A DNA stretch of 64,000 nucleotides, from contig OZ024746.1 of the NCBI GenBank assembly GCA_964016885.1, positions 70,804,001-70,868,000 of the forward strand, given 5' to 3'. Every line of letters starts with the position of its first letter. The stretch's first letter is position 1. Shown here one piece after another: positions 1,709-32,341 of this stretch. Below the pieces are notes generated by a model, which did no database searches, was not told the DNA's origin, and saw nothing but the letters and a program-made list of their open reading frames with translations. The position numbers were made by a program, and so were the translations under genes. The stretch comes from Eledone cirrhosa (Eukaryota).

Positions 1709-4700
1709 GAGGATGGGATGGGTGGTGTAGGTATCCTACTAACTGACAAGTGGGTAGAAAAGGTAATCTCAGAGAATAGGGTGAATGCAAGAATCATTAA
1801 ACTCAGACAATCCCTGAATAAAATAATTTCCACAATAATATCAGCTTACACACTCCAATCGAGGTTGCCAGAGGAACTTAAGGATAGGTTTTAATAGTCC
1901 CTAATGCACACTAGTGCTCTAACAAACGACAATGACTTCCTAATCATTGCAGGAGATTTTAAATGTAGGTAAACACCGTGACGGCTTCTATAGAGTTCAT
2001 GGAGGCCATGGGGTTGGCACAAGAAATGAAGAAGGATTCAGGCTTCTAGAATTCTGCGATGCCAATGACATGTCGATATGTAACACAAACTTCAAAAGAC
2101 CCGACAACCACCTGATCACCTATAGATCAGGGGACCATTCTAGTCAGATAGATTTTATCCTCATCAGAGGACGTGACAGATGGACGGTCATAAACACAAA
2201 AGCCTTCCCTAGTGAGGAATGTACCTCCCAACATAGCTTAGTTGTCAGCGACCTCATGGTCAGAACTAGACGAACCTGGAGAAGAAATATCTGGAAGCTG
2301 AAAGATCCCTCAGCCAGTAACAGATTTAAAGATATTTTACTCAATGCCTATGACAGTAAAGAAGAACAGATAGACATTCAATGTAGAAGAGCACTGGGTG
2401 TTCCTAAAAAATAACTTACTAAAGGCGACGGATGAGATCTGTGGCTGGAGTAAGACCACATGCAGGAGGAGAGTGACTTGTTGGTGGAACAATAAGGTAG
2501 ATGAGGCAGTTAAGGCCAAGAGACAGGCATGGAAAGAATGGAAGAACGGGGGAAGCAGGGTACATTACATAGAGACCAGGAGGGAAGCTAGGCGACAAGT
2601 ATACTTAGCTAGGAGAGAAGCAGAGGATGGAAAATTCAAGCATGTTTTGCAACGTAAGGACCAGAAACAGGAAGTGTTCAAGATTGCAAGGCAGTGTCAG
2701 AGAGAATTGTGATGTCATTGGATAGAAGTGTATCTGGAATGATAAAGGTGAGCTTGCCCTTACAAGTGCTGAGAAGAAAGATGCGTGGAAGAGCCATTAT
2801 GATAGATTACTAAATGAGGAGAATGCATGGGAAGAAGAGATCCTACCCCAAGTAGACCCTATAGAGGGGCCAGCAGTACAAGTCAGCAGCAGCGTAGTAA
2901 GTAAGGCAATCAAAGATATGAAGACAGGGAAGGCAACCGGTCCATCGGGTATAGCTGCCGAGATGCTGAAGACATCTGTGTCGGTAGGTCACACCATAAC
3001 CCCACGCATTGTTAACCAGGTAATACTAGGTGCCATACCAAAGGATTGGGGCAGTAGCATCATTGTCAACTTCTACAAAGGTAAAGGTGATGCACTAGAT
3101 GGAGGAAACTATAGAGGTATAAAGCTGATGGACCAGGTCATGAAAGTAACAGAAAGAGTTATAGCACAGTTGATTAGGGACCGGATGAAACTAGATGAGA
3201 TGCAATTTGGGTTTGTGCCAGGAAGAGGCACCACTGATACCCTCTTCCTTGTGAGGCAGTTACAGGAAAAGTACCTAGCTATAAGTAAGCCACTCTACCT
3301 GGTATTCGTCGATCTCGAGAAAGCCTTTGACAGAGTTCCCCGTGCTATAATCTGGTGGGCTCTTAGAAAACTAGGAGTAGATGAATGGCTTGTGAAAGCT
3401 GTACAAGCCATGTATAGGGGAGCAGTCAGCAAAGTTAGGATTAGCAATGAGTATAGCGAGAAATTTAGCTTACAGGTTGGTGTCCACCAGGGCTCTGTTC
3501 TTAGCCCTCTCCTATTCATCATAGTCCTGCAGGCAATAACGGATACCTGTGGGAACTCCTGTATGCTGATGACCTCGCACTTATAGCTGAATCTATGGTA
3601 GAACTAGAGAAGAAATTCCAAACTTGGAAGCAGAGACTAGAAAGAAACGGTCTCAAAGTCAACCTGACAAAGACTAAGGTCCTTGTAAGTAGACGAGAAA
3701 ACAGAACCCAGATCCCCTCAGGGAAATGGCCTTGCTCAGTATGTAGGAAAGGTGTAGGCAGGAACTCCATTCTCTGCCCCAAATGCAAACAATGGGTACA
3801 CAAGAGATGTAGCGGGATCTCAGGAAGCTTAACTTAGGCTTCACATGTAGCAGCTGTGCTGGGACAGCAAACAGCCACAGGAAACAAGTACCACCAAACT
3901 CTGGGAGGGCTCTGTAGAAACAGTAGACAGCTTCTGCTACCTAGGTGACCGAATTAGCAGCGGAGGTGGGTGTTCGGAAAGTACACTAGGGTAAGAATGG
4001 GATGGAAGAAGTTCAAGGAGCTACTGCCACTGCTGGCTGCAAAAGGCTTTTCCCTCAAAATGAAAGGCAGACTGTATGATGCGTGTATACGAACAACAAT
4101 GTTACATGGTAGTGAGACCTGAGCGCTGTCTGTGGAAGACTTGCGTAGATTAGAAAGAAACGAAGCCTGCATGCTCTGATGGATGTGTAATAGTAATATA
4201 CGCGAAGGGCAAAGCATAAAGGAATTGAGAGAGAGACTGAGCATAAGAGGAATCAAATGCTGTGTGCAGGAGAGGCGGTTGCGTTGGTATGGACATGTGA
4301 TGCGTATGAAGGATGACAGCTGCATAAAAAGGTGCAGAGCAGTGGAAGTCGATGGAAACCGCGGAGTGGGGAGACCCAAGAAGACCTGGGATGAGGTAAT
4401 AAAAGCCGACCTTACCCAATTACACCTCTCAAAGGCGATGACCCACAACCGTGACCTCTAGCGTCACACAGTAATACAGAAGACCCGACCCCCCACGGAT
4501 ACAAGCCGAAGCTGAAGCATATAGACAATATTCCCCCACACCCTCCCACTGCAAAGTGGTTGGGGAGGTGCCATGGCAAAAAAGCACCCAGCGCCCACAC
4601 TGTAAAGTGGACGTGTAGGCACCACGGAAAAAAAGCACCCAACACTCACTGTAAATGAGGTTGGTGTTAGGAAAAGCATCCAGCTGTAGAAATCAAGCCA

Positions 4701-7845: not shown

Positions 7846-7968
7846 GATCAGTTCCTGTATGAGCAAGGCATGGTCAGCCGACCAGACACTGCCCACAACA
7901 GGACAACCCGTCTAACCCATGCTAGCGTGGAAGAACGGACGTAAAACGGTGATGATGATGATGATGAT
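7846..7968 (+). mobile_element. RTE-A 3'-terminal fragment
   Basis: Matches ~4703-4810 and 56228-56348; ends in (GAT)n. Confidence 0.85.

Positions 7969-17478: not shown

Positions 17479-17536
<58 letters not shown>
17479..17536. repeat. (TC)n microsatellite immediately 5' of Tx1 copy 1
   Basis: Read directly; a matching (TC)n at 23198-23234 follows the element. Confidence 0.95.
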
Positions 17537-17539
<3 letters not shown>

Positions 17540-17751
17540 ATCTCTTGGATGGACACACGTGTGAAACTTGGTGGGTAAGTTTTGCCTAAATTTCTATAGA
17601 AATTCTCAACTGTGAACCTTCATTTTTATACCAATTTGTAGAGGGACTGCCAGGTCAAATTTTGATCTGGACAGTCTCTCAAAATATTCTACGCCTTTAG
17701 GCGAAATAGTTCATAGAAATCTTTTTGGAAAAACTAACATTTAAAAAAAAA

Positions 17752-19517
17752 ATGGCTGAAGCTTCTTCACCAACATTCGAAGGAGGAAAGGGGAAGATAT
17801 GCTTACAGCTTCCCCCTACCACTGTCATAGTAGCAGATGTCAAAGACAAAGGTCAGCAAGAGGAAGGATTTTCTCCACCTGCTGACTGACAACTTGACGA
17901 TGCCATGGCAACAAACCAAAACCAAAAGTGAAACAATTAACAAAAACAACACAACCAGTGGCACCAGCAACAACAACAATGCTATGAACGAAAACAACAC
18001 CAACAACAATAACAACAACAAGAAGACCAATAACTGCAACAAGGAAGTAAACGACAAAATATCGTTTGCGCAAACCGTAAAGAAAATGGTAAGCTACACT
18101 CTGGTAGATATTTCAAATGCAAATGAGCTTTTGAATAACGCCAGACAGTACATAACTTTTGGGGAGAACGGATCATTCTCCATAAACTCTCCCCCAGATT
18201 TGCGAAGAGAAGCTGCTTTGAAAACTGTAGTTTTCAGGACAGTCTCAAACAAAACCTGAAAACTGACTCAACTTTCACAAGGCGAAATTGAGTTGGTTTT
18301 AGAAGATGCCTTGAAAGACATTGCTTTCATTCAGAAGAGTAGACTCTACGGGAGTTTATCCATTTTGATGAAAGACCAACTGACTGCACAGAAATATTCT
18401 GTGTCGCCAATTGTGTCACCATTCACCTTTTTCCCCAGTTACATGGGGAAAAGAACACAGAAAATAAAAATCAAAAGTATCACACCAAATATTGATATTT
18501 GGTGGGTACTATGTGGATTTTTAAACCTCGAAAAAGACTCAATAATATCGGTAGGTAAGTCCTCCGGCGACCTGTTCAGCAGAACTAGCCTGGAAATTCT
18601 GGTCAAAATGACACCAGAACGAATAGCTAGGATCCCAGAACGTGTGCTGCTGGATGGCTTATATACATAAACATTTCGGTTGAGAGTAGGCGGCCCTCAT
18701 GTTACCACTGCCTAAGCAGGGGTCACCTGAGAGCTTCCTGTCCTCGGCTAACTAGCCCAAAAAAGGCATTACTGCCAACACCTGCAACACTAGCAATCGC
18801 CGCCACCACCACCACCACCACAACAACAACAACATAAAAAAATAGTGACAACAAAACAAATGACAAACACAGTCCCACCCAACTCCTCCCCACCTAAAAC
18901 AACTCCAGAAACACCCACACACATAACAGTTCCCCAAAATGTACCCCTCCCCAACCTCATCATCGTCACCCAGTGACGATGAGGGAGAGCCTTTCCGACC
19001 AGTAAAAAGAATAAAGAAAAGACATAACACAAACAAAAATGCAACAAACACACAAACACCAACACAAGCGATGCAAACAGCACAAACAAAAACACCCCCT
19101 CCTGAAAACAAAACACCTACTACAAAACGTAAACACACACAAGAACCACAGACAAAAAGCAACACAACAAAAATGTTACACCTACATAAATACTAACAAT
19201 AAAACTTTAACAGACACCATATATAAAACCCTTCGGTGGAGACCGAAGGGAAAACTTTTACACACTCTTCGGAGAATCTTAATCTTAAAATGATTAGGAT
19301 TTCCATAGACACACAAACAGTTAAAAGAAAAATTTCCTAATGACGTAAGTAACCCCTGCATCAAACCCTATAACCGCGTCCTTTTGAAATATTTCCCCAC
19401 CCCCACCCCACCTGACACCCCTCCCCACCAAACATCTCCATCCCCACCCCACCAAACAACCCCTCCAACACTCCCATGGAAATTGTGCAGCCTGGTCCCC
19501 AGGAGACGAAGAGGTGA
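17752..19517 (+). pseudogene. Tx1 ORF1 (gag-like nucleic-acid-binding protein), frameshifted
   Basis: ATG at 17752; track segments 17837-18259 and 18293-18670; perfect CX2CX4HX4C knuckle CYHCLSRGHLRASC at 18700-18741; T/P/N/K-rich tail; probable stop TGA at 19515-19517. Confidence 0.72.
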
Positions 19518-19557
19518 GTGATTTCTTTTCCTCTTCTTTTAACTTTTCAGCACCAAC

Positions 19558-22500
19558 ATGGCCAATATAAGAGTTGGATGTGTGAATCTACGCGGCCTGG
19601 GGATGCCCTGGAAACAGGGCAAACTCTTAAACGACCTCAGGTCGCACAGTATGGATGTAGTAGCCATTTGCGAGTCCAGGATCCACAGCGAGCGACAACT
19701 GGCCCCCATCTTCGACGACTTTGAGATCTACGCATCTCTCTGTCAGCCGGAAGGTGGGGGTGGGGTTGCCGTTTTGCTGCGGAAACACCTGGACCTCTTA
19801 ACACAGACGGTACATCTGGACCCGGAAGGTCGATTGGTGGTCTAGACGTTGTCGGTAGTGAAGGTGGAGCCTTCAGGCTGGTGGCCGCATATGCCCCATT
19901 CGGGACACCGCGGCCAGACTTCTTCAAACGTCTAGAGACTTTTCTGGGAATGTCCCGCTCCCTGTTAGTGGGGAACTGGAATGGAATCTTAGATGCACGT
20001 TGGGACCATGTGGGAGCATGTCCCGATAGAGGGGGGGTGGGGGGTGTAACAGCCTCAAACAGTTAATCGGCCGATTTGACCTGGCCGATAGATATCGACT
20101 AGATTTTCTGACTGTGCCACTGTGGACGTGGACTAATTGTAGCGGAACATCTAGATCGTACCTAGATAGGGTTCTAGTTAGAAAGAAGGATAGGGACATG
20201 TTAAGCTGTCCACAAATGTTCATGGTTGCCTATTCAGATCACAAATTAGTGACCTGCTTAGTCAACCTTGACAAAACCCATAGACAGGGACCCGGCTATT
20301 GGAAGCTGAACTTGTTACCGACATGCAAAGCCTACAGTAGACGGATTAGCACTTTAGTTAAGCAGCACTTGACGGGGAGCCATTGTCAACAACAGATGGT
20401 GGTACTCTCTCAAGAGGGCAGTTAGATTAGACTCGATAGGTTTTAGTAAAGAATTAGTGTTAGATAGAAATAAGACCGAAAAGGAATTGGTAGATAAAGT
20501 AGAAGAGGCACTTAGGAGTGGCAACGTAGCCAGCGTACTAGCGACGAGAACGGCCTTGGACCAGTTCTTCGACGCAAAGCATGAAGGCTGCGTTGTCAGA
20601 AGCAAAATACGTGCTCTGGGAAACGAGGGAGCCAAAGCTGTCAGCTGGGCCTGAGTGACGGAGGTGAAAGTGGCAACAAGTCCACGATTCGGTCTTTGAA
20701 GGACCAAGACGGACGCGTGATACGTGCGCCGAAGCAGATGTGTGTGGCTTTTCAGCAGCACTTTGCTCAACTGTTCGGGCAGAGCGGCGTGCCGGAGGAG
20801 CTATGGATTTCAGTCCATACCTTGACGGCCTACCGCGACGGCCTACCGCGACTCTCGGACAGCGAGGCGAAGTTCTGCGAAAGGCCAATTTCGGCCGCTG
20901 AGATAGGGGACGCGCTGAGCCAATGCGGCAAACGAAACTCTCCAGGTCTCAACGATCTACCCTACGAATTTTATGTAGCAATGCCGGACTTGTTCTCCGG
21001 TCTCCTGCAACTGGCAGCAGAACGGGAGAATTCCCAGTTCTGTGACCAAGGGCGTAGTCATGTTAGTCAGGAAGGACGAAAATAAGGGGGATGACATAGG
21101 CAACTTCTGGCCCATAACTCTGCTAAACACAGAGTTAAAGATTTGGGCCAAGGTGTTGGCAAAGAGGCTGGCGCTTGTCATTGAAAACCTGGTGGGAGAA
21201 GCGCAGACATGCGCAATCCCGACTAGGTCCATACACGACAACCTCCACCTCATGCGATACATCATAGAGAGGGTAGGGTGTAAACCTGGCTTCGGTGGGG
21301 CTCTGATCAACTTGGATCTGTCTAAGGCTTTCGATAGGGTTGACCATCGTTACCTGGATGCGGTGCTCGAGGCGGCAGGCTTTGGACCTGGGTTCAGGGG
21401 CTGGATTGCTGCAATGCACAGCAGCAACATCTGCTCAAGGGTCAAGGTGAACGGCTACCTCTCGGAGCCGTTCCATATCACGCGATCCATCCGACAGGGA
21501 TGCCCTCTCTCCTCCCTTCTGTACGTATTGACTCTAGAGCCACTATTGCGGAAGTTGGAGCTATTGCAGGGCATCCCTTTGGAACCGGGACTGCGAAAAG
21601 TGGCGTTGGCCTGCGCCGACGACGTGACAGTAATGGTGTCGAGCACCTTGCAAATCGGGGAGGTCGGCACCTTACTGGAGGAATACGAAAGGTTCACAGG
21701 AGCGAAGCTGAACCTGGACAAATCTGTTGGTTTGCAACTTGGAACATGGAGAGGCAAACCGATGACGTCGTCGGACGCTGGACGGAAGGACTGGTAAAGC
21801 TGCTCGGGGTCTGGTTTGGTCTGGACCTCCAGGTGGAGAAGAACTGGAATGAGGTGACTGCCAAGGTGTTTGCGCACACCCAGAAGTGGGCCGAGCACAA
21901 ACTATCCTTGAAAGTTCGAGTGGAGGTGGCGAAACTTTTATAGCGTCCGTCATCTACTACCGCTTGACCGTCGTGCCTTGTCCAGCCAAAACGCTCACCA
22001 AAATGGAGTGCGCACTCTTCCAATTCCTTTGGAAGAAACAGGCTCCTTTGGTGAGAAGATCCATCTGCTGCCAACACCCTTCAAATGGAGGGCTGGGGAT
22101 GCCGTGGTTGACGATGCGCAAACACGCGCTCAGGCTGCGGCACCTCCACATATTCCTCACCAGACAACCGGTGTGGACCCCGTTCGTGAGGCGAGCCTTC
22201 CCACGACTCGTCTCGCTGACCGAGCTGCAGGCCTGGGTCAAGCAAAGACTGAGGAAAATGGGCGACTGGCACATCCAATGTGCTCAGGCGCTCACAGTCC
22301 TCTGGCAAACAGACCCGGCGATCAGTGGAGACTCCACTTCGACATTCTATAGAGGGTTGGTTTGCAGCAAGTGCGACAACGCGCTCGGAGAAACTCTGGG
22401 CGTAGAGGAGGCCGAACTGGCCAGTTTGTTCGGTAGGACCTTCCGCCCGGGTCCAATGGACAACTTCCAAAAGTCCCTGGCCTGGCAGTGCTACCGAGGA

Positions 22501-22982
22501 GCTCTACCAGTTCGAGATAAGCTCTACAGACACGGGCGCCCCGGCAGGGACCCTTCGAAAAAGATTTGTCCGAGATGCGTGAGTGACGAGGAAACCATTG
22601 CGCACGCATTTGTACACTGCCTGGGCGTTAGCCCCACAGGTCGGTATGTAGAACGACTATTGTCGCACGTGGGACCAATCCAGTTGCCACCGAGTCCATT
22701 GTCATGATCAAACCGCCACCCTCCTTCAAAAACGAGGGAGAGGCGGTTTTCCTATGTGTTATGGCTATGGTGAAAGAGGTTATATGGTGGACGAGGTTAA
22801 AAGGGCTGAGGTCAGACACCTTTCTCTCCGGCGAGCAACTGATTAGTTTTTTCAAATATCATTTTGGAAGAAGAATCAGGATGGAGAGAGAGGTGCTATA
22901 CTCCAGCAAATTTTATAAAAGGTGGGTGAATGTGGCAAAGATGGCCCGAGTGGTTGGGCCTTCTCTCTATATAAGCCTGTAG
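19558..22982 (+). pseudogene. Tx1 ORF2 (APE endonuclease, RT, C-terminal zinc finger), multiple frameshifts
   Basis: MANIRVGCVNLRGL, ICES, GGGVAVL, SYLDRVL, SDHKLV, DLSKAFDRV and RQGCPLS motifs. Catalytic YADD is changed to CADD (~21612). A 13-bp duplication sits at 20824-20849. Confidence 0.92.
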
Positions 22983-23197
22983 GTAGAGGAAGGGAGTACT
23001 CACTCTTGGTACTCCTGGAGATGAGGGTTGTACATTTTTTCGGGGGTGTACAACCCATGTGTAACGCCTCCCCCCCATTGGGGATTTCAATTGTTATTTG
23101 TTATTTTATTAATAGTTTTATTTTCATATACCTGTATGTAAACTCCCCATTTGTATTTGTTCCCTTCTTTTGTGCCCTTGTGGCTAATAAAGAAATT

Positions 23198-23234
<37 letters not shown>

Positions 23235-23779
23235 AGCTTCCTTTTTCTCTGTCCCTCTTTTTCACTGGCCCACTCTCCTCATCACTTTTTCTCTTCCTAT
23301 TAATCTCTCATTCTCTGTATGTCTTTATAACTATCTCTCATGATAGTTTAACCCTTTTAATATCAAACCACCTGAAACCACCCCTGGTTCTATGATACAA
23401 AACTAATCTGAAAACCTTCCATCATAATTTCATGCAAAAACTTTCGTTATGTTCCAAATACCAACTTTATAATAGGTAGCACTAGAAATACGATAATGAA
23501 AGTGTTAACACCCTTCATTCTGTGTCGCTATTTTCTCTCCACTCTATCCCTCTCTTTGTCACTGATCTCTAACTATTTCTCTCTTTGTTGCTGTTCTCTT
23601 TGTTTATCACTGCACTCGCTCTCTCATGCTCTTTACCACATAATTCTATCATCCTCATTATTTGTTGCACACACAAGAGGGAGAGGGAGCGAGATGGCTT
23701 TTATTTGTAACTCTAACCCTAACCCTCCCTCTCTAACTCTGTCTGTTGGCTTCTCTACCTGCATTTTTCTTGAACTGTC

Positions 23780-24485
23780 ACTCTGTCTGTCACTCTATCT
23801 GTCTGTCTTGATCTATCTATAAGAAAGATATCTATATATATCTATCTCTTAGTGTGTCAGTCAATTTATATCTGTCTGTCTGTCTCTCTATGAATATCTA
23901 TCTGTCTGTCTATCTATCTATATCTGTCTGTTTATATCTATCTATCAATATCTATCTATCTATCTATCCTTAGTTACGTCCCTTTACGATCTGAGGTCAA
24001 ATCCCGCCGAGGTTGACTTTGCCTTTCATCCCTTACGGGGTCGATAAAATAAAGTACCAGTAATGCTCTGGGTAATTGCTGGCCTGGTGCCAAAAGTAGA
24101 AACAATATCTATCTATCTAGCTATCTTTCTTTCTGTCTGTCTTTCTATATCTGTCTTTCTCTCTTGATCAATCTATACCTATCCATCCATCTATCTAGCT
24201 GCCTGTCTATTTATATCTATCTATCTATCTGTCTATTTATATCTATCTATCTATCTGTCTATTTATATCTATCTATCTATCTATCTATCTGTCTATTTAT
24301 AACTATCTATCTATCTATTTATATCTATCTATCTATCTATTTGTCTATTTATAACTATCTGTCTGTCTATTTATATCTATCTATCTGTCTGTCTATTTAT
24401 ATCTGTCTGTCTATCTATCTGTCTATTTATATCTATCTATCTATCTATCTATCTATTTCTATCTATCTATCTATCTATCTATTTA

Positions 24486-24524
<39 letters not shown>

Positions 24525-24587
24525 TTCTATCTATCTATCTATCTATCTATCTATTTATATCTATCTATCTATCTATCTATCTATCTA
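23780..24587. repeat. (TCTA)n/(TCTG)n microsatellite field with a SINE fragment at ~23970-24105
   Basis: Read directly from sequence. Confidence 0.92.
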
Positions 24588-25466
24588 ATTCTATAGAGGG
24601 TTGGTCCGCAGCAAGTGCGACGACGCGCTCGGTGAAACTCTGGGCGTGGAGGAAGATGAACTGGCCAGTCTGTTCGGTAGGACCTTCCGCCCGGGACCGA
24701 TGGACAACTTCCAAAAGTCCCTGGCCTGGCAGTGCTACCGAGGAGCTCTACCAGTTCGAGACAAGCTCTACAGACATGGGCGCCCGGGCAGGGACCCTGC
24801 AAAAAAGATCTGTCCGAGGTGCGTGCGAGACGAAGAAACCGTCGCGCACGCATTCATACACTGCCCGGGCGTCACTGACCTGTGGGGCTATGTGGAACGA
24901 CTATTGTCGCGGGTGGGACCAATCCAGTTGACCACCGAGTCCATTGTCATGATCAAACCGCCACCCTCCTTCAAAAACGAAGGAGAGGCGGTTTTCCTTT
25001 GTGTGATAGCTATGGCGAAAGAGGTTGTATGGTGGACAAGGTTGAAAGGGCTGAGGTCAGACACCTTTCTCTCCGGCCAACAACTGATTCTTTTTTTCAA
25101 ATACCACTTTGGAAGAAGAATCAGGATGGAGAGAGAGGTGCTGTACCCCAGCAAGTTTTATGAAAGGTGGGTGAAAGTGGCGAGAATGGCCCGAGTGAAT
25201 GGGCCTTCTCTCTATATCAGCCTGTAGGTTGAGGAAAAGGAGGAGGAGAGGAAAGGAGTACAAGCTCTTCGTACTCCTGGAGATGAGGGTTGCACATTTT
25301 TTTCGGGGGTCTGTGTTACCCATATAAACTGTCTCCCTCTATTGGGGAAAATCGACTAACTTTTAAATTCCATCTGTGATAACATTTTACACGTTTTTAT
25401 TGTATGTAAACTTCCCCCTTTGTATTTGTCCCCTTCTTTTGTGCCCCTGTGGCTAATAAAGAAATA
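24588..25466 (+). mobile_element. Tx1 copy 2, 5'-truncated (879 bp)
   Basis: Collinear with 28050-28928 with about 10 substitutions by eye; ORF2 C-terminus with CPRC...HAFIHC; AATAAA at 25455; flanked by (TCTA)n. Confidence 0.95.
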
Positions 25467-25507
<41 letters not shown>

Positions 25508-25511
<4 letters not shown>

Positions 25512-28500
25512 GGACCCGGAGGGTCGACTGGTGGTCCTAGACGTTGACGGTAGTGAAGGTGGAGCGTTCAGGCTGGTGGCCGCATATGCCCCATCCGGGA
25601 CACCGCGGCCAGACTTCTTCAAACGTCTAGAGACTTTTCTGGGAACGTCCCGCTCCTTGCTTTTAGTGGGGGACTGGAATGGAATCCTAGATGCACGTTG
25701 GGACTATGTGGGAGCATGTCCCGATAAAGGGGGGTGTAACAGCCTCAAACAGTTAATCGACCGATTTGACCTGGCCGATAGATATCGACTAGATTTTCCG
25801 ACTGCGCCACTGTGGACGTGGAGTAATCGTAGCGGAACATCTAGATCGTACCTAGATAGGGTTCTAGTTAGAAATAAGGATAGGGACATGTTAAGCTGTC
25901 CACAAATGTTCATGGTTGCCTATTCAGATCACAAACTAGTGACCTGCATGGCCAACCTTGATAGAACCCATAGACAAGGACCCGGCTACTGGAAGCTGAA
26001 CTTGTCGTTACCGACAAGCAAAGCCTACAGTAGACGGATTAGCACTTTAGTTAAACAGCACTTGACAGGGGCCATTGTCAACAACAGATGGTGGTACTCT
26101 CTCAAGAGGGCAGTTAGATTAGACTCGATAGTTTTTAGTAAAGAATTAGCGTTAGATAGAAATAGAACCGAGAAGGAACTGGTAGATAAAGTAGAAGAGG
26201 CTATTAGAAGTGGCAACGTAGCCAGCGTGCTAGCAACGAGAACGGCCTTGGACCAGTTCTTCGACGCAAAGCACGAGGGCTGCGTTGTCAGAAGCAAAAT
26301 ACGTGCTCTGGGAAACGAGGGAGCCAAAGCTGTTAGCTGGGCCCGAGTGACGGAGGCAAAAAGTGGCAACAAGTCCACGATTCGGTCTTTGAAGGACCAA
26401 AACGGACGCGTGATACGTGAGCCGAAGCAGATGTGTGCGGCTTTTCAGCGGCACTTTGCTCGGCTGTTCGGGGGGAGCGGCGCGCCGGGAGAGGCTATGG
26501 ATTTCGGTCCATACCTCGACGGCCTACCGCGACTCTCGGACAGCGAGGCGAAGTTCTGCGAAAAGCCGATTTCAGCCACTGAGATAGGGGACGCGCTGAG
26601 CCAATGCGGCAAACGCAAATCTCCAGGTCTCGACGGTCTACCCTACGAATTTTACGTAGCAATGCCGGACTTATTCTCCGGTCTCCTGGAAGCGGTCTAC
26701 TGCAACTGGCAACAGAACGGGAGAATTCCCAGTTCTGTAACCGGGGGCGTGGTCACACTAATCAGGAAGGACGAGAATAAGGGGGATGACATAGGCAACT
26801 TCCGGCCCATAACTCTGCTAAACACAGAGTTACAGATTTTGGCCAAGGTGTTGGCAAAGAGGCTGGCGCTTGTCGTCGAGAACCTGGTGGGAGAAGCGCA
26901 GACATGCGCGATCCCGACCAGGTCCATACACGACAACCTCCACCTCATGCGATACATCATAGAGAGGGTAGGGTGTAAACCCAGCTTCGGTGGGGCCCTG
27001 ATCAACTTGGATCAGTCTAAGGCTTTCGATAGGGTTGACCATCGTTACCTGGATGCGGTGCTCGAGGCGGCAGGCTTCGGACCCGTGTTCAGGGGCTGGA
27101 TTGCTGCAATGCACAACAGCAACATCTGCTCAAGGGTCAAGGTGAACGGTTACCTCTCGGAGCCGTTCCATATTACGCGATCCATTCGACAGGGATGCCC
27201 TCTCTCCTCCCTTCTGTACGTACTGACTCTCGAGCCACTACTGCGGAAGCTGGAGCTATTGCAGGGCATCCCTCTGGAACCGGGACTGCGGAAAGCGGCG
27301 TCGGCCTACGCCGACGACGTAACAGTAATGGTGTCGAGCGCCTCGCAAATCGAGGAAGTCGGCACCTTACTAAAGGAATACGAAAGTCTCACAGGAGCGA
27401 AGCTGAACCGGGACAAGTCCATCGGTTTGCAACTCGGATCGTGGAGAGGCAGACCGATGCCTTCCGATGGCGTCGTCGGACGCTGGACGGAAGGACCGGT
27501 AAAGCTGCTCGGGGTCTGGTTTGGTCCGGACCTCCAGGTGGAGAAGAACTGGAACGAAGTGACGGCCAAGGTGTTTGCACTCACCCAGAAGTGGGCCGAG
27601 TGCAAACTATCCTTGAAAGGTCGAGCGGAGGTGGCGAACACTTTTATAGCGTCCGCCATCTACTACCGCTTGACCGTCGTGCCTTGTCCAGCCAAAACGC
27701 TCGCCAAAATGGAGCGCGCCCTCTTCCGATTCCTTTGGAAGAGGCGGGCTCCTTTGGTAAGAAGATCCATCTGCTGCCAACACCCTTCTAACGGAGGGCT
27801 GGGGATGCCGTGGTTGACGATGCGCAAACACGCGCTCAGGCTGCGACATCTCTACGTATTCCTCACCGGACAACCGGTGTGGGCCCCGTTCGTGAGGCGA
27901 GCCTTCCCACGACTCGTCTCACTGACCGAGCTGCAGTCCTGGGTCAAGCAGAGACCGAGGAAAATGGGCGACTGGCACATCGAATGTGCTCAGGCGCTCA
28001 CAGCCCTCTGGCAGGCGGACCCGGCGATCAGTGGAGACTCCACTTCGTCATTCTATAGAGGGTTGGTCCGCAGCAAGTGCGACGACGCGCTCGGTGAAAC
28101 TCTAGGCGTGGAGGAAGATGAACTGGCCAGTCTGTTCGGTAGGACCTTCCGCCCGGGACCGATGGACAACTTCCAAAAGTCCCTGGCCTGGCAGTGCTAC
28201 CGAGGAGCTCTACCAGTTCGAGACAAGCTCTACAGACATGGGCGCCCGGGCAGGGACCCTGCAAAAAAGATCTGTCCGAGGTGCGTGCGAGACGAAGAAA
28301 CCGTCGCGCACGCATTCATACACTGCCCGGGCGTCACTGACCTGTGGGGATATGTAGAACGACTATTGTCGCGGGTGGGACCAATCCAGTTGACCACCGA
28401 GTCCATTGTCATGATCAAACCGCCACCCTCCTTCAAAAACGAAGGAGAGGCGGTTTTCCTTTGTGTGATAGCTATGGCGAAAGAGGTTGTATGGTGGTCA

Positions 28501-28928
28501 AGGTTGAAAGGGCTGAGGTCAGACACCTTTCTCTCCGGCCAACAACTGATTCTTTTTTTCAAATACCACTTTGGAAGAAGAATCAGGATGGAGAGAGAGG
28601 TGCTGTACCCCAGCAAGTTTTATGAAAGGTTTTTGAAAGTGGCGAGAATGGCCCGAGTGAATGGGCCTTCTCTCTATATCAGCCTGTAGATTGAGGAAAA
28701 GGAGGAGGAGAGGAAGGGAGTACAAGCTCTTCGTACTCCTGGAGATGAGGGTTGCACATTTTTTTCGGGGGTATGTGTTACCCATATAAACTGTCTCCCT
28801 CTATTGGGGAAAATCGACTAACTTTTAAATTCCATCTGTGATAACATTTTACACGTTTTTATTGTATGTAAACTTCCCCCTTTGTATTTGTCCCCTTCTT
28901 TTGTGCCCCTGTGGCTAATAAAGAAATA
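25508..28928 (+). mobile_element. Tx1 copy 3, 5'-truncated within the APE domain
   Basis: Begins ATCTGGACCCGGA (matches copy 1 at ~19814); AATAAA at 28917; (TCTA)n on both sides. Confidence 0.95.
25510..28689 (+). CDS. Uninterrupted Tx1 ORF2 segment (partial APE, RT, zinc finger) lacking the N-terminal ~85 aa
   Basis: GDWN, YLDRVL, SDH, KSPGLDGLP, NFRPITLLN, DQSKAFDRV, RQGCPLS, YADD and CPRCVRDEETVAHAFIHC; no stop codons over ~3.18 kb; no native start codon. Confidence 0.9.
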
Positions 28929-29053
28929 TATCTATCTATCTATCTATCTGTCTATTTATATCTATCTGTCTGTCTATCAGTCAGTCTTTCTGTCTGACTG
29001 TCTATTCTGTCAGTCCTGTCTATCTATTTAGCTAGCTATCTGTCTGTATGCCT

Positions 29054-31615
29054 ATTGAATTTAGTAAGGTTCTAGCTGCGGATAGGAATAGGAAGGAAAG
29101 GGAGCTAATAGATAGAGTAGAAGAGGCAATTAGAAGCGGCGACGTGGCCAGAGTGCTAGCGTCGAGAACGGCTTTGAGCCAGTTTTTCGACGCGAAGCAC
29201 GAAGGCTGCGTTGTCCGAAGTAAAATACGTGCTCTAGGGAACGAGGGGGCCAAAGCTGTTAGCTGGGCCCGCGTGACAGAGGCCAACAGTGGAACTAAAT
29301 CCACCATCCGGTCTTTGCGAGACCTGGATGGACGGGCGATTCTTGAGCCTAAGCAGATGTGTGAGGCCTTTCAAAGGCACTTTGCCCGACTGTTCGGGAG
29401 GGGCGGGGAGCCGGTTGGAAACGTGGACTTCGGTCCATACCTCGACGGCCTGCCGCGCCTCTCGGACAGGGAGGCGAAGTCTTGCGAGGAGCCGATTTCG
29501 GCCGCTGAGATAGAGGACGTGCTGGGCCAATGCGGCAAACGCAAATCCCCGGGTCTCGATGGTCTTCCTTACGAATTATATCTAGCTATGCCGGACTTGT
29601 TCCCCGATCTCCTCGAGGCGGTCTACTGCAACTGGCAACAGAACGGGAGAATTCCCTGTACTGTGACCAAGGGCGTAGTCACGCTAGTGAGGAAGGACGA
29701 GAACAAGGGGGACGAAATAAGTAACTTCAGGCCCATAACTCTGCTAAATACAGAGTTACAGATTTTGGCCAAGGTGCTAGCAAAGAGGTTGGCGCTTGTC
29801 GTGGGCAACCTGGTGGGAGATGCGCAGACATGCGCTATCCCGTCCAGGTCCATCCATGACAACCTCCACCTCATGCGATACATCATAGAGAGGGTTGGGA
29901 ACGAACCCGGCTTTGGTGGGGCTCTGATCAACTTGGATCAATCTAAGGCGTTCGATAGGGTCGACCATGGTTACCTGGATGCGGTGCTAGCGGCGGCAGG
30001 CTTCGGACCTGTTTTCAGGGGCTGGATCACTGCTATGCACAGCAGCCGCATCTGCTCTAGGGTCAAGGTGAACGGCTACCTCTCGGAGCCGTTCAAAATC
30101 GCGCGGTCCATCCGACAAGGGTGCCCTCTCTCCTCCCTTCTGTATGTGTTGACTCTCGAGCCACTACTGCGGAAGTTGGAGTTGTTGCAGGGCATCCCTT
30201 TGGAACCGGGATTGCGGAAAGCGGTGTCAGCCTACGCCGATGATGTGACAGTAATGGTGTCGACGGCCTCCGAAATCGAGGCGGTCGGCACCTTACTGGA
30301 GGAGTACGAAAAGTTCACAGGGGCTAAGCTGAACCGGGACAAGTCGATCGGTTTGCAACTCGGCACGTGGAGGGGCAGACCGATGCCCTCCGATGGCGTC
30401 GTCGGACGCTGGACGGAGGGCCCGGTGAAGTTGCTTGGGGTCTGGTTCGGACCGGACCTCCAGGTGGAGAAAAACTGGGCGGAGGTTACGAACAGGGTGT
30501 TTGCACTGACCCAGAAGTGGGCCAGTTGCAAACTATCCCTGAAAGGTCGGGCGGAGGTGGCGAACACTTATATAGCGTCCGTCATCTACTACCGCCTGAC
30601 CGTAGTGCCCTGCCCAAGGGAAACCCTCACCAAGATGGAGCGCGCGCTCTTCCAATTCCTTTGGAAGGGGCGGGCTCCTATGGTGAGGAGATCCATCTGC
30701 TGTCAACACCCTTCGAATGGAGGGCTGGGGATGCCGTGGCTAATGATGCGTAAACACGCATTAAGGCTACGGCACCTCTACGTATTCCTCACCGGACAAC
30801 CGGTGTGGGCCTCGTTTGTGAGACGAACCTTTCCCAGACTCGTCTCACTCACCGAGCTGCAATCCTGGGTCAAGCAAAGACCGAGAAAACTGGGCGCCTG
30901 GCACACTGAGTGTGCCCAGGCGCTCACCGCCCTCTGGCAGGCGGATCCGGTTATCAGTGGAGACTCCACCGCAACATTCTATAGAGGGCTGGTACGCAGC
31001 AGGTGCGACGACGCCCTCGGAGAAGCCCTAGACATGGAGGAGGACGAACTGGCCAGCCTGTTCGGTGGGACATTCAGCCCGGGACCTATGGACAACTTCC
31101 AGAAGTCCCTGGCCTGGCAGTGCTACCGAGGGGCTTTACCCGTTCGAGAAAGGCTCTACAGACACGGGCGCCCGGGTAGGGACCCCGCCAAAAAGATCTG
31201 TCCCAGATGCGTGTGCGACGAGGAAACCGTTGCACACGCATTGGTACACTGCTCGGGCGTAGCCGATCTGTGGGGCTATGTCGAACAACTGCTGTCAAGG
31301 GTGGGACCGATCCGGTTGACCACCGAGTCTATTGTAATGATCAAGCCGCCTCCCCCCTTCAAAGATGAAGCAGAGGCGGTGTTTCTGTGCGTAATAGCCA
31401 TGGCGAAAGAGGTTGTATGGTGGACGCGTCTGAAAGGACTGAGGTCAGGCACCTTTCTCTCTGGCCAACAACTGGTCCGTTTCTTCCGATATCATTTCGG
31501 AAGAAGGATCAGGATGGAGAGAGAGGTGCTGCACCCCAGTCGTTTTTATGAAAGGTGGGTGAAAGTGGCGAGAATGGCCCGTGTGAATGGGCCTTCTCTT
31601 TACATAAGCCTGTAG
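29054..31615 (+). CDS. Uninterrupted Tx1 ORF2 segment (RT and zinc finger; endonuclease lost)
   Basis: YADD, RQGCPLS and CPRCVCDEETVAHALVHC. The ATG at 29048 lies in the TSD and is not native. Confidence 0.88.
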   Translation: MEFSKVLAADRNRKERELIDRVEEAIRSGDVARVLASRTALSQFFDAKHEGCVVRSKIRALGNEGAKAVSWARVTEANSGTKSTIRSLRDLDGRAILEPKQMCEAFQRHFARLFGRGGEPVGNVDFGPYLDGLPRLSDREAKSCEEPISAAEIEDVLGQCGKRKSPGLDGLPYELYLAMPDLFPDLLEAVYCNWQQNGRIPCTVTKGVVTLVRKDENKGDEISNFRPITLLNTELQILAKVLAKRLALVVGNLVGDAQTCAIPSRSIHDNLHLMRYIIERVGNEPGFGGALINLDQSKAFDRVDHGYLDAVLAAAGFGPVFRGWITAMHSSRICSRVKVNGYLSEPFKIARSIRQGCPLSSLLYVLTLEPLLRKLELLQGIPLEPGLRKAVSAYADDVTVMVSTASEIEAVGTLLEEYEKFTGAKLNRDKSIGLQLGTWRGRPMPSDGVVGRWTEGPVKLLGVWFGPDLQVEKNWAEVTNRVFALTQKWASCKLSLKGRAEVANTYIASVIYYRLTVVPCPRETLTKMERALFQFLWKGRAPMVRRSICCQHPSNGGLGMPWLMMRKHALRLRHLYVFLTGQPVWASFVRRTFPRLVSLTELQSWVKQRPRKLGAWHTECAQALTALWQADPVISGDSTATFYRGLVRSRCDDALGEALDMEEDELASLFGGTFSPGPMDNFQKSLAWQCYRGALPVRERLYRHGRPGRDPAKKICPRCVCDEETVAHALVHCSGVADLWGYVEQLLSRVGPIRLTTESIVMIKPPPPFKDEAEAVFLCVIAMAKEVVWWTRLKGLRSGTFLSGQQLVRFFRYHFGRRIRMEREVLHPSRFYERWVKVARMARVNGPSLYISL

Positions 31616-31879
31616 GTGGAAAAGAGGAAGGAACGAGGGAGCACCCCCTCTCTGTGCTCCTGAGGAAAAGGGTTGCACACTTTTTTCGGGGGTGTGTGCG
31701 ACCCCCCAAGGCGCCTCCTCTCTATTGAGGATTTTGTTAAAAATTTTATTTTTTGTTATATCTTATTTTATTTTTATATTTTGTTATTGCCTCCTCCTTA
31801 TTGAGGACGCCTTTTTGTGTAAACTCCCCCCTTTGTACTTGTCCCACTTTTGGTGCCCTAGTGGCAAATAAAAGAAACT
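29054..31879 (+). mobile_element. Tx1 copy 4 (diverged subfamily), 5'-truncated, 17-bp TSD
   Basis: TATCTGTCTGTATGCCT at 29037-29053 and 31880-31896; AATAAA at 31867. Confidence 0.95.
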
Positions 31880-32341
31880 TATCTGTCTGTATGCCTGTCC
31901 TGTTTGTCCTGTCTGTTCTGCCTGTCAAGTCTATTGACATCTCTCTGTCAGCCTGTCTCACCTGTCTACATCTATCTATCTGTCTGACAGTCAGTCTAGC
32001 TATATGTATCTGCTTGTCCATCCATTTAACCAGGTCAGTCCCTGGTCCCTGCTGTTGTTAACATTCCCCAAACCACTACACTAACATTTCCATATTAGAC
32101 AACAACTGTCCACTCACATGCACACAATGGGGCACACGCTTCCACTTTATCACATCCAATGTGTATATGTATATATATATATATATATATATCATCATCA
32201 TCATCGTTTAATGTCTATCTTCCACGTTAGCATGGGTTAGACGGGAATTGTCCCACTCGAGGCAAGATTGGTCGGGTGACTGTGTCTCGCTCGTATAGGA
32301 CTATTTGGCAGGTTTTCTACAGCTGGATGCCCTTCCTAACA

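Follow-up and report, generated by a model that had tools for sequence, protein, structure and literature searches.

Several long interspersed nuclear elements (LINEs) of the Tx1 clade insert into pyrimidine-rich microsatellites. In teleost fish, Kibi occupies (TC)n and Koshi (TTC)n (PMC4494074, PMC3812793), and crocodilian Tx1 elements (Tx1-1_Crp and others), reported to lie near Kibi and Koshi, reside in (TTCC)n and (TTTC)n (PMC4494074). How LINEs with an apurinic/apyrimidinic endonuclease-like (APE) domain choose microsatellites is described as poorly understood (PMC3812793). Here, we analyze a 64,000-nucleotide stretch of contig OZ024746.1 (assembly GCA_964016885.1, positions 70,804,001 to 70,868,000; referred to in its whole length as the window), in which four copies of an L1/Tx1-group LINE family, probably of octopod origin, stand within microsatellites built of TC, TCTA or TCTG (hereafter TC-type), and we weigh the reading, which we favor by a small measure, that this lineage has a soft preference for TC/TCTR microsatellites (R, A or G).

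L1-Tx1 elements are among those expanded in coleoids (PMC8967140). For O. vulgaris, 421 insertions from 13 recently active L1-Tx1 families have been tabulated (PMC13282606, Table 1), and the word "target" has no occurrence in the main text of that study; the window family may be one of those listed. The literature searched, with Repbase, Dfam and most subscription papers outside its range, holds no report of a Tx1 element targeting TCTA or TCTG or of the target specificity of a cephalopod Tx1, and prior cataloguing of the family in Repbase or Dfam is possible. Clustered copies also have precedents: tandem insertions enclosing a target-site duplication (TSD) have been described for SINEU-3 (PMC4494074) and dimers of transposable elements (TEs) arising by repeated insertion for Drosophila (10.1101/158386); PMC8869645 and PMC4640811 provide general background only.

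The locus resembles those of Kibi and Koshi in that an APE-type LINE resides in a pyrimidine-rich microsatellite, which at copy 1 is likewise (TC)n. It differs in that the family is probably cephalopod, that TCTA and degenerate TCTG are also used (copy 1 stands in (TC)n, copies 2-4 in TCTA/TCTG), and that its reverse transcriptase (RT) falls into a long-branch clade of its own, with a sister that is not microsatellite-flanked, in a tree containing no Kibi or Koshi sequence. No (TTC)4+ run occurs in the 64-kb window. With the crocodilian elements the family would share a preference for tetranucleotide microsatellites on the pyrimidine strand (PMC4494074), whereas its own units contain A or G (TCTA, TCTG). 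Since tetranucleotide targets of Tx1 elements have already been reported, the step to TCTA/TCTG is small.

Results

Four co-oriented LINE copies of three subfamilies

All four copies lie on the + strand, belong to three subfamilies, lack poly(A) and have TC-type repeat on both their 5' and 3' sides, as the preliminary description of this DNA had claimed; blastn and tblastn found no further copy of the family in the window. Copy 1 (17547-23196, +; 5' base uncertain by 1) is full length and decayed, comprising a 5' untranslated region (UTR), two open reading frames (ORFs) and a 3' UTR that ends in AATAAAGAAAT. Its ORF1 (17752-19330, +; delimited from translations, with an approximate 3' end) is broken by stops and frameshifts and encodes a single CX2CX4HX4C knuckle (18700-18741) followed by a Thr/Pro/Lys-rich stretch; the middle part has no Pfam, Atlas or homologue match. 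The ORF2 of copy 1 (19558-22982, +; APE, RT and zinc finger), with several frameshifts and stops, retains the APE N-terminus absent from copy 3, its Exo_endo_phos match (E=0.0018) being under the curated cut-off.

The other copies are 5'-truncated. Copy 2 (24588-25464, +) measures 877 bp and shows 10 differences from copy 3 (25508/12-28926, +), which begins within the APE domain and carries an open frame of 1059 aa, with its stop at 28689, matching RVT_1 (E=6.6e-27), zf-RVT (3.6e-6) and, on the truncated domain, part of Exo_endo_phos (7e-5). Copy 4 (29054-31879, +) ends in AATAAAAGAAACT and has an open frame of 859 aa, with its stop at 31615, that includes RVT_1 and zf-RVT. Across the final ~640 nt of ORF2 common to the copies, identity is 98.9% between copies 2 and 3, 89.0% between 1 and 3, 85.5% between 3 and 4 and 82.0% between 1 and 4, and copies 1, 2/3 and 4 therefore represent three subfamilies. 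Each copy has the 3' end AATAAA(A)GAAA, to which we add 0-2 ambiguous bases in place of the 1-2 nt given earlier, and runs directly into TC (copy 1), TCTA (copies 2 and 3) or degenerate TCTG repeat (copy 4).

The combination of APE endonuclease, RT and C-terminal zinc-binding domain is that of L1-group and Tx1-clade ORF2 proteins, and the best solved relative of ORF2 is human L1 ORF2p (E=2e-47), which supports the original assignment as far as an L1/Tx1-type ORF2. A separate ORF1 with a CCHC knuckle, typical of Tx1, is present in copy 1; Tx1 membership is thus consistent with the anatomy. The APE motifs recognizable in copy 1 (N and E) and copy 3 (YAP, GDWN, YLDR and SDH) correspond to the catalytic motifs of L1. 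Before SYLDR, the loop is 8 residues long, as against 8-12 (mostly 10) in proteins of the sister lineage described below.

The nearest homologues with a eukaryote name come from Argonauta hians (63-65%) and then Acanthosepion pharaonis (36-47%), which is why we regard the family as an octopod lineage. It is abundant and diverse in public reads: copy 3 is represented in part in 20 public sequencing runs, with half or more of its words present in five, and in four runs 33,574, 3,168, 104,824 and 203,456 records aligned to copy 3. The listing names no RNA run, a result that carries no weight in either direction.

The flanking repeats as pre-existing targets

The clearest junctions are those of copy 4. 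The 127-bp TCTA/TCTG spacer before it (28927-29053, +) closes with a TSD (29037-29053) that recurs exactly, over 17 bp, directly behind the element (31880-31896, +; TATCTGTCTGTATGCCT), where degenerate TCTG repeat follows. This sequence is non-periodic and has exactly two occurrences in the window; within the degenerate parts of the tracts, 66,066 position pairs gave 5 matches of at least 17 bp, and the share is 0.35% with pure tracts included. Copy 1 follows a (TC)n tract (17480-17546, +; Tandem Repeats Finder) whose last 11 bp (17536-17546) form the 5' copy of a TSD; the 3' copy (23197-23207), with one mismatch, opens the tract on the other side (23197-23234, +). This TSD covers TT irregularities of the otherwise pure (TC)n tract, and is the weaker evidence, since it is set in a microsatellite.

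Copy 2 is preceded by a degenerate (TATC)~124 tract (24106-24587, +) with a higher-order unit of 26-30 bp, and a 32-bp periodic direct repeat lies on both of its sides. The spacer between copies 2 and 3, TA(TATC)11 (25465-25511, +), is likely a duplicated target; its last four bases (ATCT) are microhomology with the 5' end of copy 3, and the earlier observation that only (TATC)11 separates the two copies was borne out. The spacer after copy 3 has the same higher-order organization as the tract before copy 2: the unit GTCTATTTATATCTATC occurs five times before copy 2, once after copy 3 and nowhere else in the window. The presence of the unit both upstream of copy 2 and downstream of copy 3 therefore indicates one original tract.

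The repeat type is equal 5' and 3' of each copy, yet differs between copies with near-identical 3' ends. Taken with this, the TSDs of copies 4 and 1 and the shared higher-order unit indicate that the repeats were pre-existing targets rather than tails, in agreement with the earlier view of the tracts as landing sites; as insertion into pre-existing tracts, the finding is better founded than when first stated.

Occupancy of TC-type DNA

On the + strand, TC-type DNA makes up 1039 of the 51,229 non-element bases (2.0%), and on the - strand 80 bp. All insertion sites fall within it (p ~1.5-1.9e-5 window-wide, a post hoc value for a locus picked by eye), and the three subfamilies, of apparently different age, agree in this. 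TA/TATG/TG tracts, with 7,700 non-element bases (15%), contain no copy. A published criterion for a target, its presence in >20% of genome-wide flanks (PMC4494074), compares here with 4 of 4 copies at three sites, in the window only.

Several observations weigh against a preference for TC-type DNA. Copies 2 and 3 share one site, which leaves three sites instead of four, and the count of four independent sites was dropped for this reason. These three are neighbors at a single locus chosen because it was striking; they lie within ~1.5 kb of empty-site DNA that is 35-40% TC-type, and conditional on that region p is 0.04-0.07. The flanks of copy 4 are degenerate, with a TC-type score of 0.38 against 0.68-0.84 for the other copies. 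None of the 24 loose ends listed from the mapping (6,465 further exist), which skipped the 3' junction repeat, provides a 3' flank of the family outside the locus. A short interspersed nuclear element (SINE) also sits in the same tract as the LINE copies. As shown below, the sister lineage and more distant relatives add to these points.

The strand specificity proposed earlier is not established: the orientation is shared, but agreement at three sites has p=1/8, itself a point against the strong claim, and the TC-type tracts of the window are almost all on + (1039 against 80 bp). The microsatellites of the window are strand-asymmetric in general (26 TCTA/TCTG runs on + and 0 on -; 32 TATG against 3 CATA; 50 TG against 23 AC), such as a long transcribed intron might show.

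The SINE in the TCTA tract (23969-24105, +) is a 5'-truncated copy of an abundant SINE, without the TTA tail of other complete copies, and has a 23-bp direct repeat on its two sides that differs at one position (23946-23968 and about 24101-24123). We rejected it as evidence in its own right, since chance allows for one of 18 blast hits in 2% of the DNA.

An array-forming sister lineage without TC-type flanks

Scanning the genome collection with a clade-specific motif yielded 36 loci, 31 of them on ten contigs of one record (G001) that is titled a bacterial metagenome-assembled genome; the contigs are likely animal host DNA. These 31 loci encode a relative of the window family (41-43% aa). Five bacterial loci of the scan had no tblastn match. 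By our own count from the match table, G001 holds 85 matches, 57 of them near full length (contigs C3-C15 and C17-C19; loci L082-L136, e.g., L097:1501-7203). The copies form co-oriented head-to-tail arrays of up to ~11 units with a period of ~6.4-6.9 kb, each unit an intact two-ORF LINE, and in protein sequence they match the P0007/P0010/P0014 group at 92-98% identity, with L100 at 76% to P0008. G001 proteins, copies 3 and 4, P0001 and the Argonauta sequence constitute one clade with support of 1.0 (FastTree) and 100 (IQ-TREE).

The sister elements (G001 and the P0007, P0008 and P0014 groups) share with the window family a single CCHC knuckle in ORF1 (in the sister a weak zf-CCHC match), the poly(A)-less end AATAAA(A)G and co-oriented stacking. 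They differ in that their units are near-identical and full length, linked by short unique spacers and free of TC-type flanks, and in that the two ORF1 proteins are not alignable. With scores of 0-0.11, where the window copies have 0.38-0.84, none of 29 distinct sister 3' flanks, mostly internal array junctions that are not independent, is TC-type, and none of the four outer 5' flanks of arrays that were located is so by eye. A loose regular expression had flagged 10 of the 29 flanks; by eye these hold T runs or three GA units, and under the strict score none remains.

The clade as a whole thus stacks and ends without poly(A), traits that need no microsatellite, which is a further point against the preference, and the piling up of copies, which the preliminary description had read as support for microsatellite targeting, loses that role. 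The absence of TC-type flanks from the sister implies that a TC preference, if there is one, originated on the octopod branch or disappeared in the sister.

Two observations concern the arrays themselves. A short spacer is common to arrays on different G001 contigs and absent from some outer 5' flanks, and the pattern suggests that the arrays formed as concatemers and not by site-specific re-insertion; they are possibly more unusual than the window finding. The 3' tail of the abundant SINE (window 53766-53899, -, and about 44400-44543, -) and the 3' end of an array LINE (L097 near 7870-7910) resemble each other in a C run, an A run and then GGCCT(T/C)GTGCC, a short match given here without statistics; this hints that the SINE tail may be derived from, or mobilized by, the array-forming clade.

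More distant relatives

RT trees were built with FastTree (145 rows, most of P0021-P0066 omitted) and as an IQ-TREE quick tree (45 rows), both with midpoint roots and without a named Tx1, Kibi/Koshi or L1 reference. FastTree placed U2- and 5S-flanked elements together with the window clade (0.905), and the quick tree did not keep this grouping. The U2- and 5S-flanked elements concerned, Keno-like and Mutsu-like (L007, L012, L016, L018 and L023), are among the nearest with an identifiable target. They have the same ORF2 layout at 27-30% aa identity, and differ in targeting RNA genes, in ending with an A run (L016, L018 and L023) and in standing apart from the window clade in the IQ-TREE topology.

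A metagenome scan added 80 more distant loci, with best segments at 25-36% and one at 44%. Rfam analysis of 20 of them placed U2, 5S rRNA or tRNA genes at or in several, which are kinds of target that Tx1 families are known to use; a TC/TTC-type repeat flank is absent from all 80 loci, which again speaks against the preference. The names Kibi and Koshi are absent from the homologue listings of the family, no microsatellite-derived terminus was present among 314 stored proteins, and scans of viral contigs and the first scan of genome contigs returned no relative, their one hit, L081, having no tblastn match. Some loci had features of their own. U2-like Rfam matches lie upstream of ORF2, in the 5' part, at L001:701-817, L002:554-716 and L007:782-896, with a flanking U2 in addition at L007. 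At L041:5055-5127 an L1/Tx1-type element has its A-run end within one of the tRNA genes of a cluster, and at L056 and L079 the A-run end is followed by a similar short sequence, possibly a shared target.

Elsewhere in the window are a second, unrelated decayed LINE (about 2100-4300, +; 27% to the copy 3 RT over 177 aa) and two minisatellites, one with 30 repeats of a 70-bp unit, itself made up of 5-bp GTGTA/GTGTG-like subunits (37151-39205), and one with 6 repeats of a 119-bp unit (46046-46804).

Discussion

Collectively, we lean, by a narrow balance of probability, toward the view that an octopod L1/Tx1-group lineage has a soft preference for TC/TCTR microsatellites. Four copies of this lineage would have entered pre-existing TC-containing microsatellites, with a machinery that likely favors pyrimidine-rich repeats; the endonuclease, the structure of the local DNA or chromatin may make the choice. 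Insertion would proceed by target-primed reverse transcription. The APE domain is predicted to nick the purine-rich strand, leaving an A-ended primer (…AGATA or …AGAA); that this strand is cut first is suggested because the TSD begins with TATCT at copy 4 and TTCT at copy 1. The primer of L1 is T-rich and pairs with the poly(A) tail, and an A-ended primer, unable to do so, fits the missing tail of the window copies. Reverse transcription would then start at the poly(A)-less end of the RNA with no more than 1-2 bases paired, and the TSD of 11-17+ bp would come from a second, staggered nick. Since the TSD would regenerate the site, a second copy of the same subfamily could land beside the first, as presumably happened with copies 2 and 3, and nearby tracts may have served two other subfamilies at different times. 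Since TC, TCTA and degenerate TCTG are all accepted, the preference is probably soft; it probably originated in the window lineage rather than being inherited from an ancestor shared with Kibi and Koshi. The further-reaching proposal, that an octopod lineage evolved strand-specific TC/TCTA/TCTG targeting independently of Kibi/Koshi, from an ancestor that stacked head to tail at non-repeat sites, we regard as less likely than not.

The main rival to a TC/TCTR preference is a local hot spot combined with clade-wide stacking, in which the element has little sequence preference and re-inserts near earlier copies or in an accessible region. The cluster would then merely happen to occupy the main TC-type tract of the window, as the local p of 0.04-0.07 and the SINE in the same tract allow; the sister also stacks head to tail with short non-repeat spacers, and tandem TE dimers are common and made by repeated insertion (10.1101/158386). 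However, the same study ascribes dimers to insertion-site preference, and the sister arrays consist of near-identical full-length units, whereas the window holds three subfamilies (82-89% alike) split by host DNA. Moreover, copy 1, at a distance of 1.4 kb from the others, occupies a short (TC)n tract of its own, and three of three sites are repeat DNA. We consider such a hot spot rather unlikely, if worth keeping in view.

Passive accumulation, in which unbiased insertions survive in low-complexity neutral DNA and their orientation follows a local strand bias, would accord with the asymmetry of the window's TCTA/TCTG and TATG runs, and has been proposed near CA repeats for Waldo-A/B (PMC3812793). 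It gives no account of the empty, seven-fold larger TA/TATG/TG tracts, and copies 2-4 look young, with open frames and an exact TSD; we find it improbable. More improbable still is that copy 2 is a local partial duplication of the 3' end of copy 3, or an assembly artefact, which would leave three events. The 98.9% identity, the identical 3' junction and the 46-bp spacer are as this would have it, but there are ten differences, at six of which, all those among the listed positions, the majority read allele is that of copy 2, and a 32-bp periodic direct repeat surrounds copy 2. The allele pattern fits two insertions from one source, and an early duplication is also compatible with it. Finally, repeats made or carried by the element as tails, as in LINE clades with 3' tandem repeats, are barely credible and largely refuted: all four 3' ends do pass straight into repeat, but the repeat is present 5' as well, the 3' flank of copy 4 repeats its 5' flank exactly, the unit varies among copies with near-identical ends, and the sister elements have no repeat tail.

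Returning to the soft TC/TCTR preference, a liking for TC, TCTA and TCTG tracts would be a modest extension of the behavior of Kibi and Koshi in fish, judged from three sites in the window. If the preference fails genome-wide, the locus would be an ordinary cluster of LINE copies. If it is real, the octopod lineage would provide a young and abundant invertebrate family with a relaxed TC/TCTR preference alongside a non-targeting sister at ~42% identity, making the evolution of target sites directly comparable between the two. Such a sister pair would be suited to finding the APE residues, or the features of the RNA 3' end, that switch an array-forming LINE to one that targets microsatellites, and the preference would help to explain the clustering of TEs in the microsatellite-rich genomes of octopuses.

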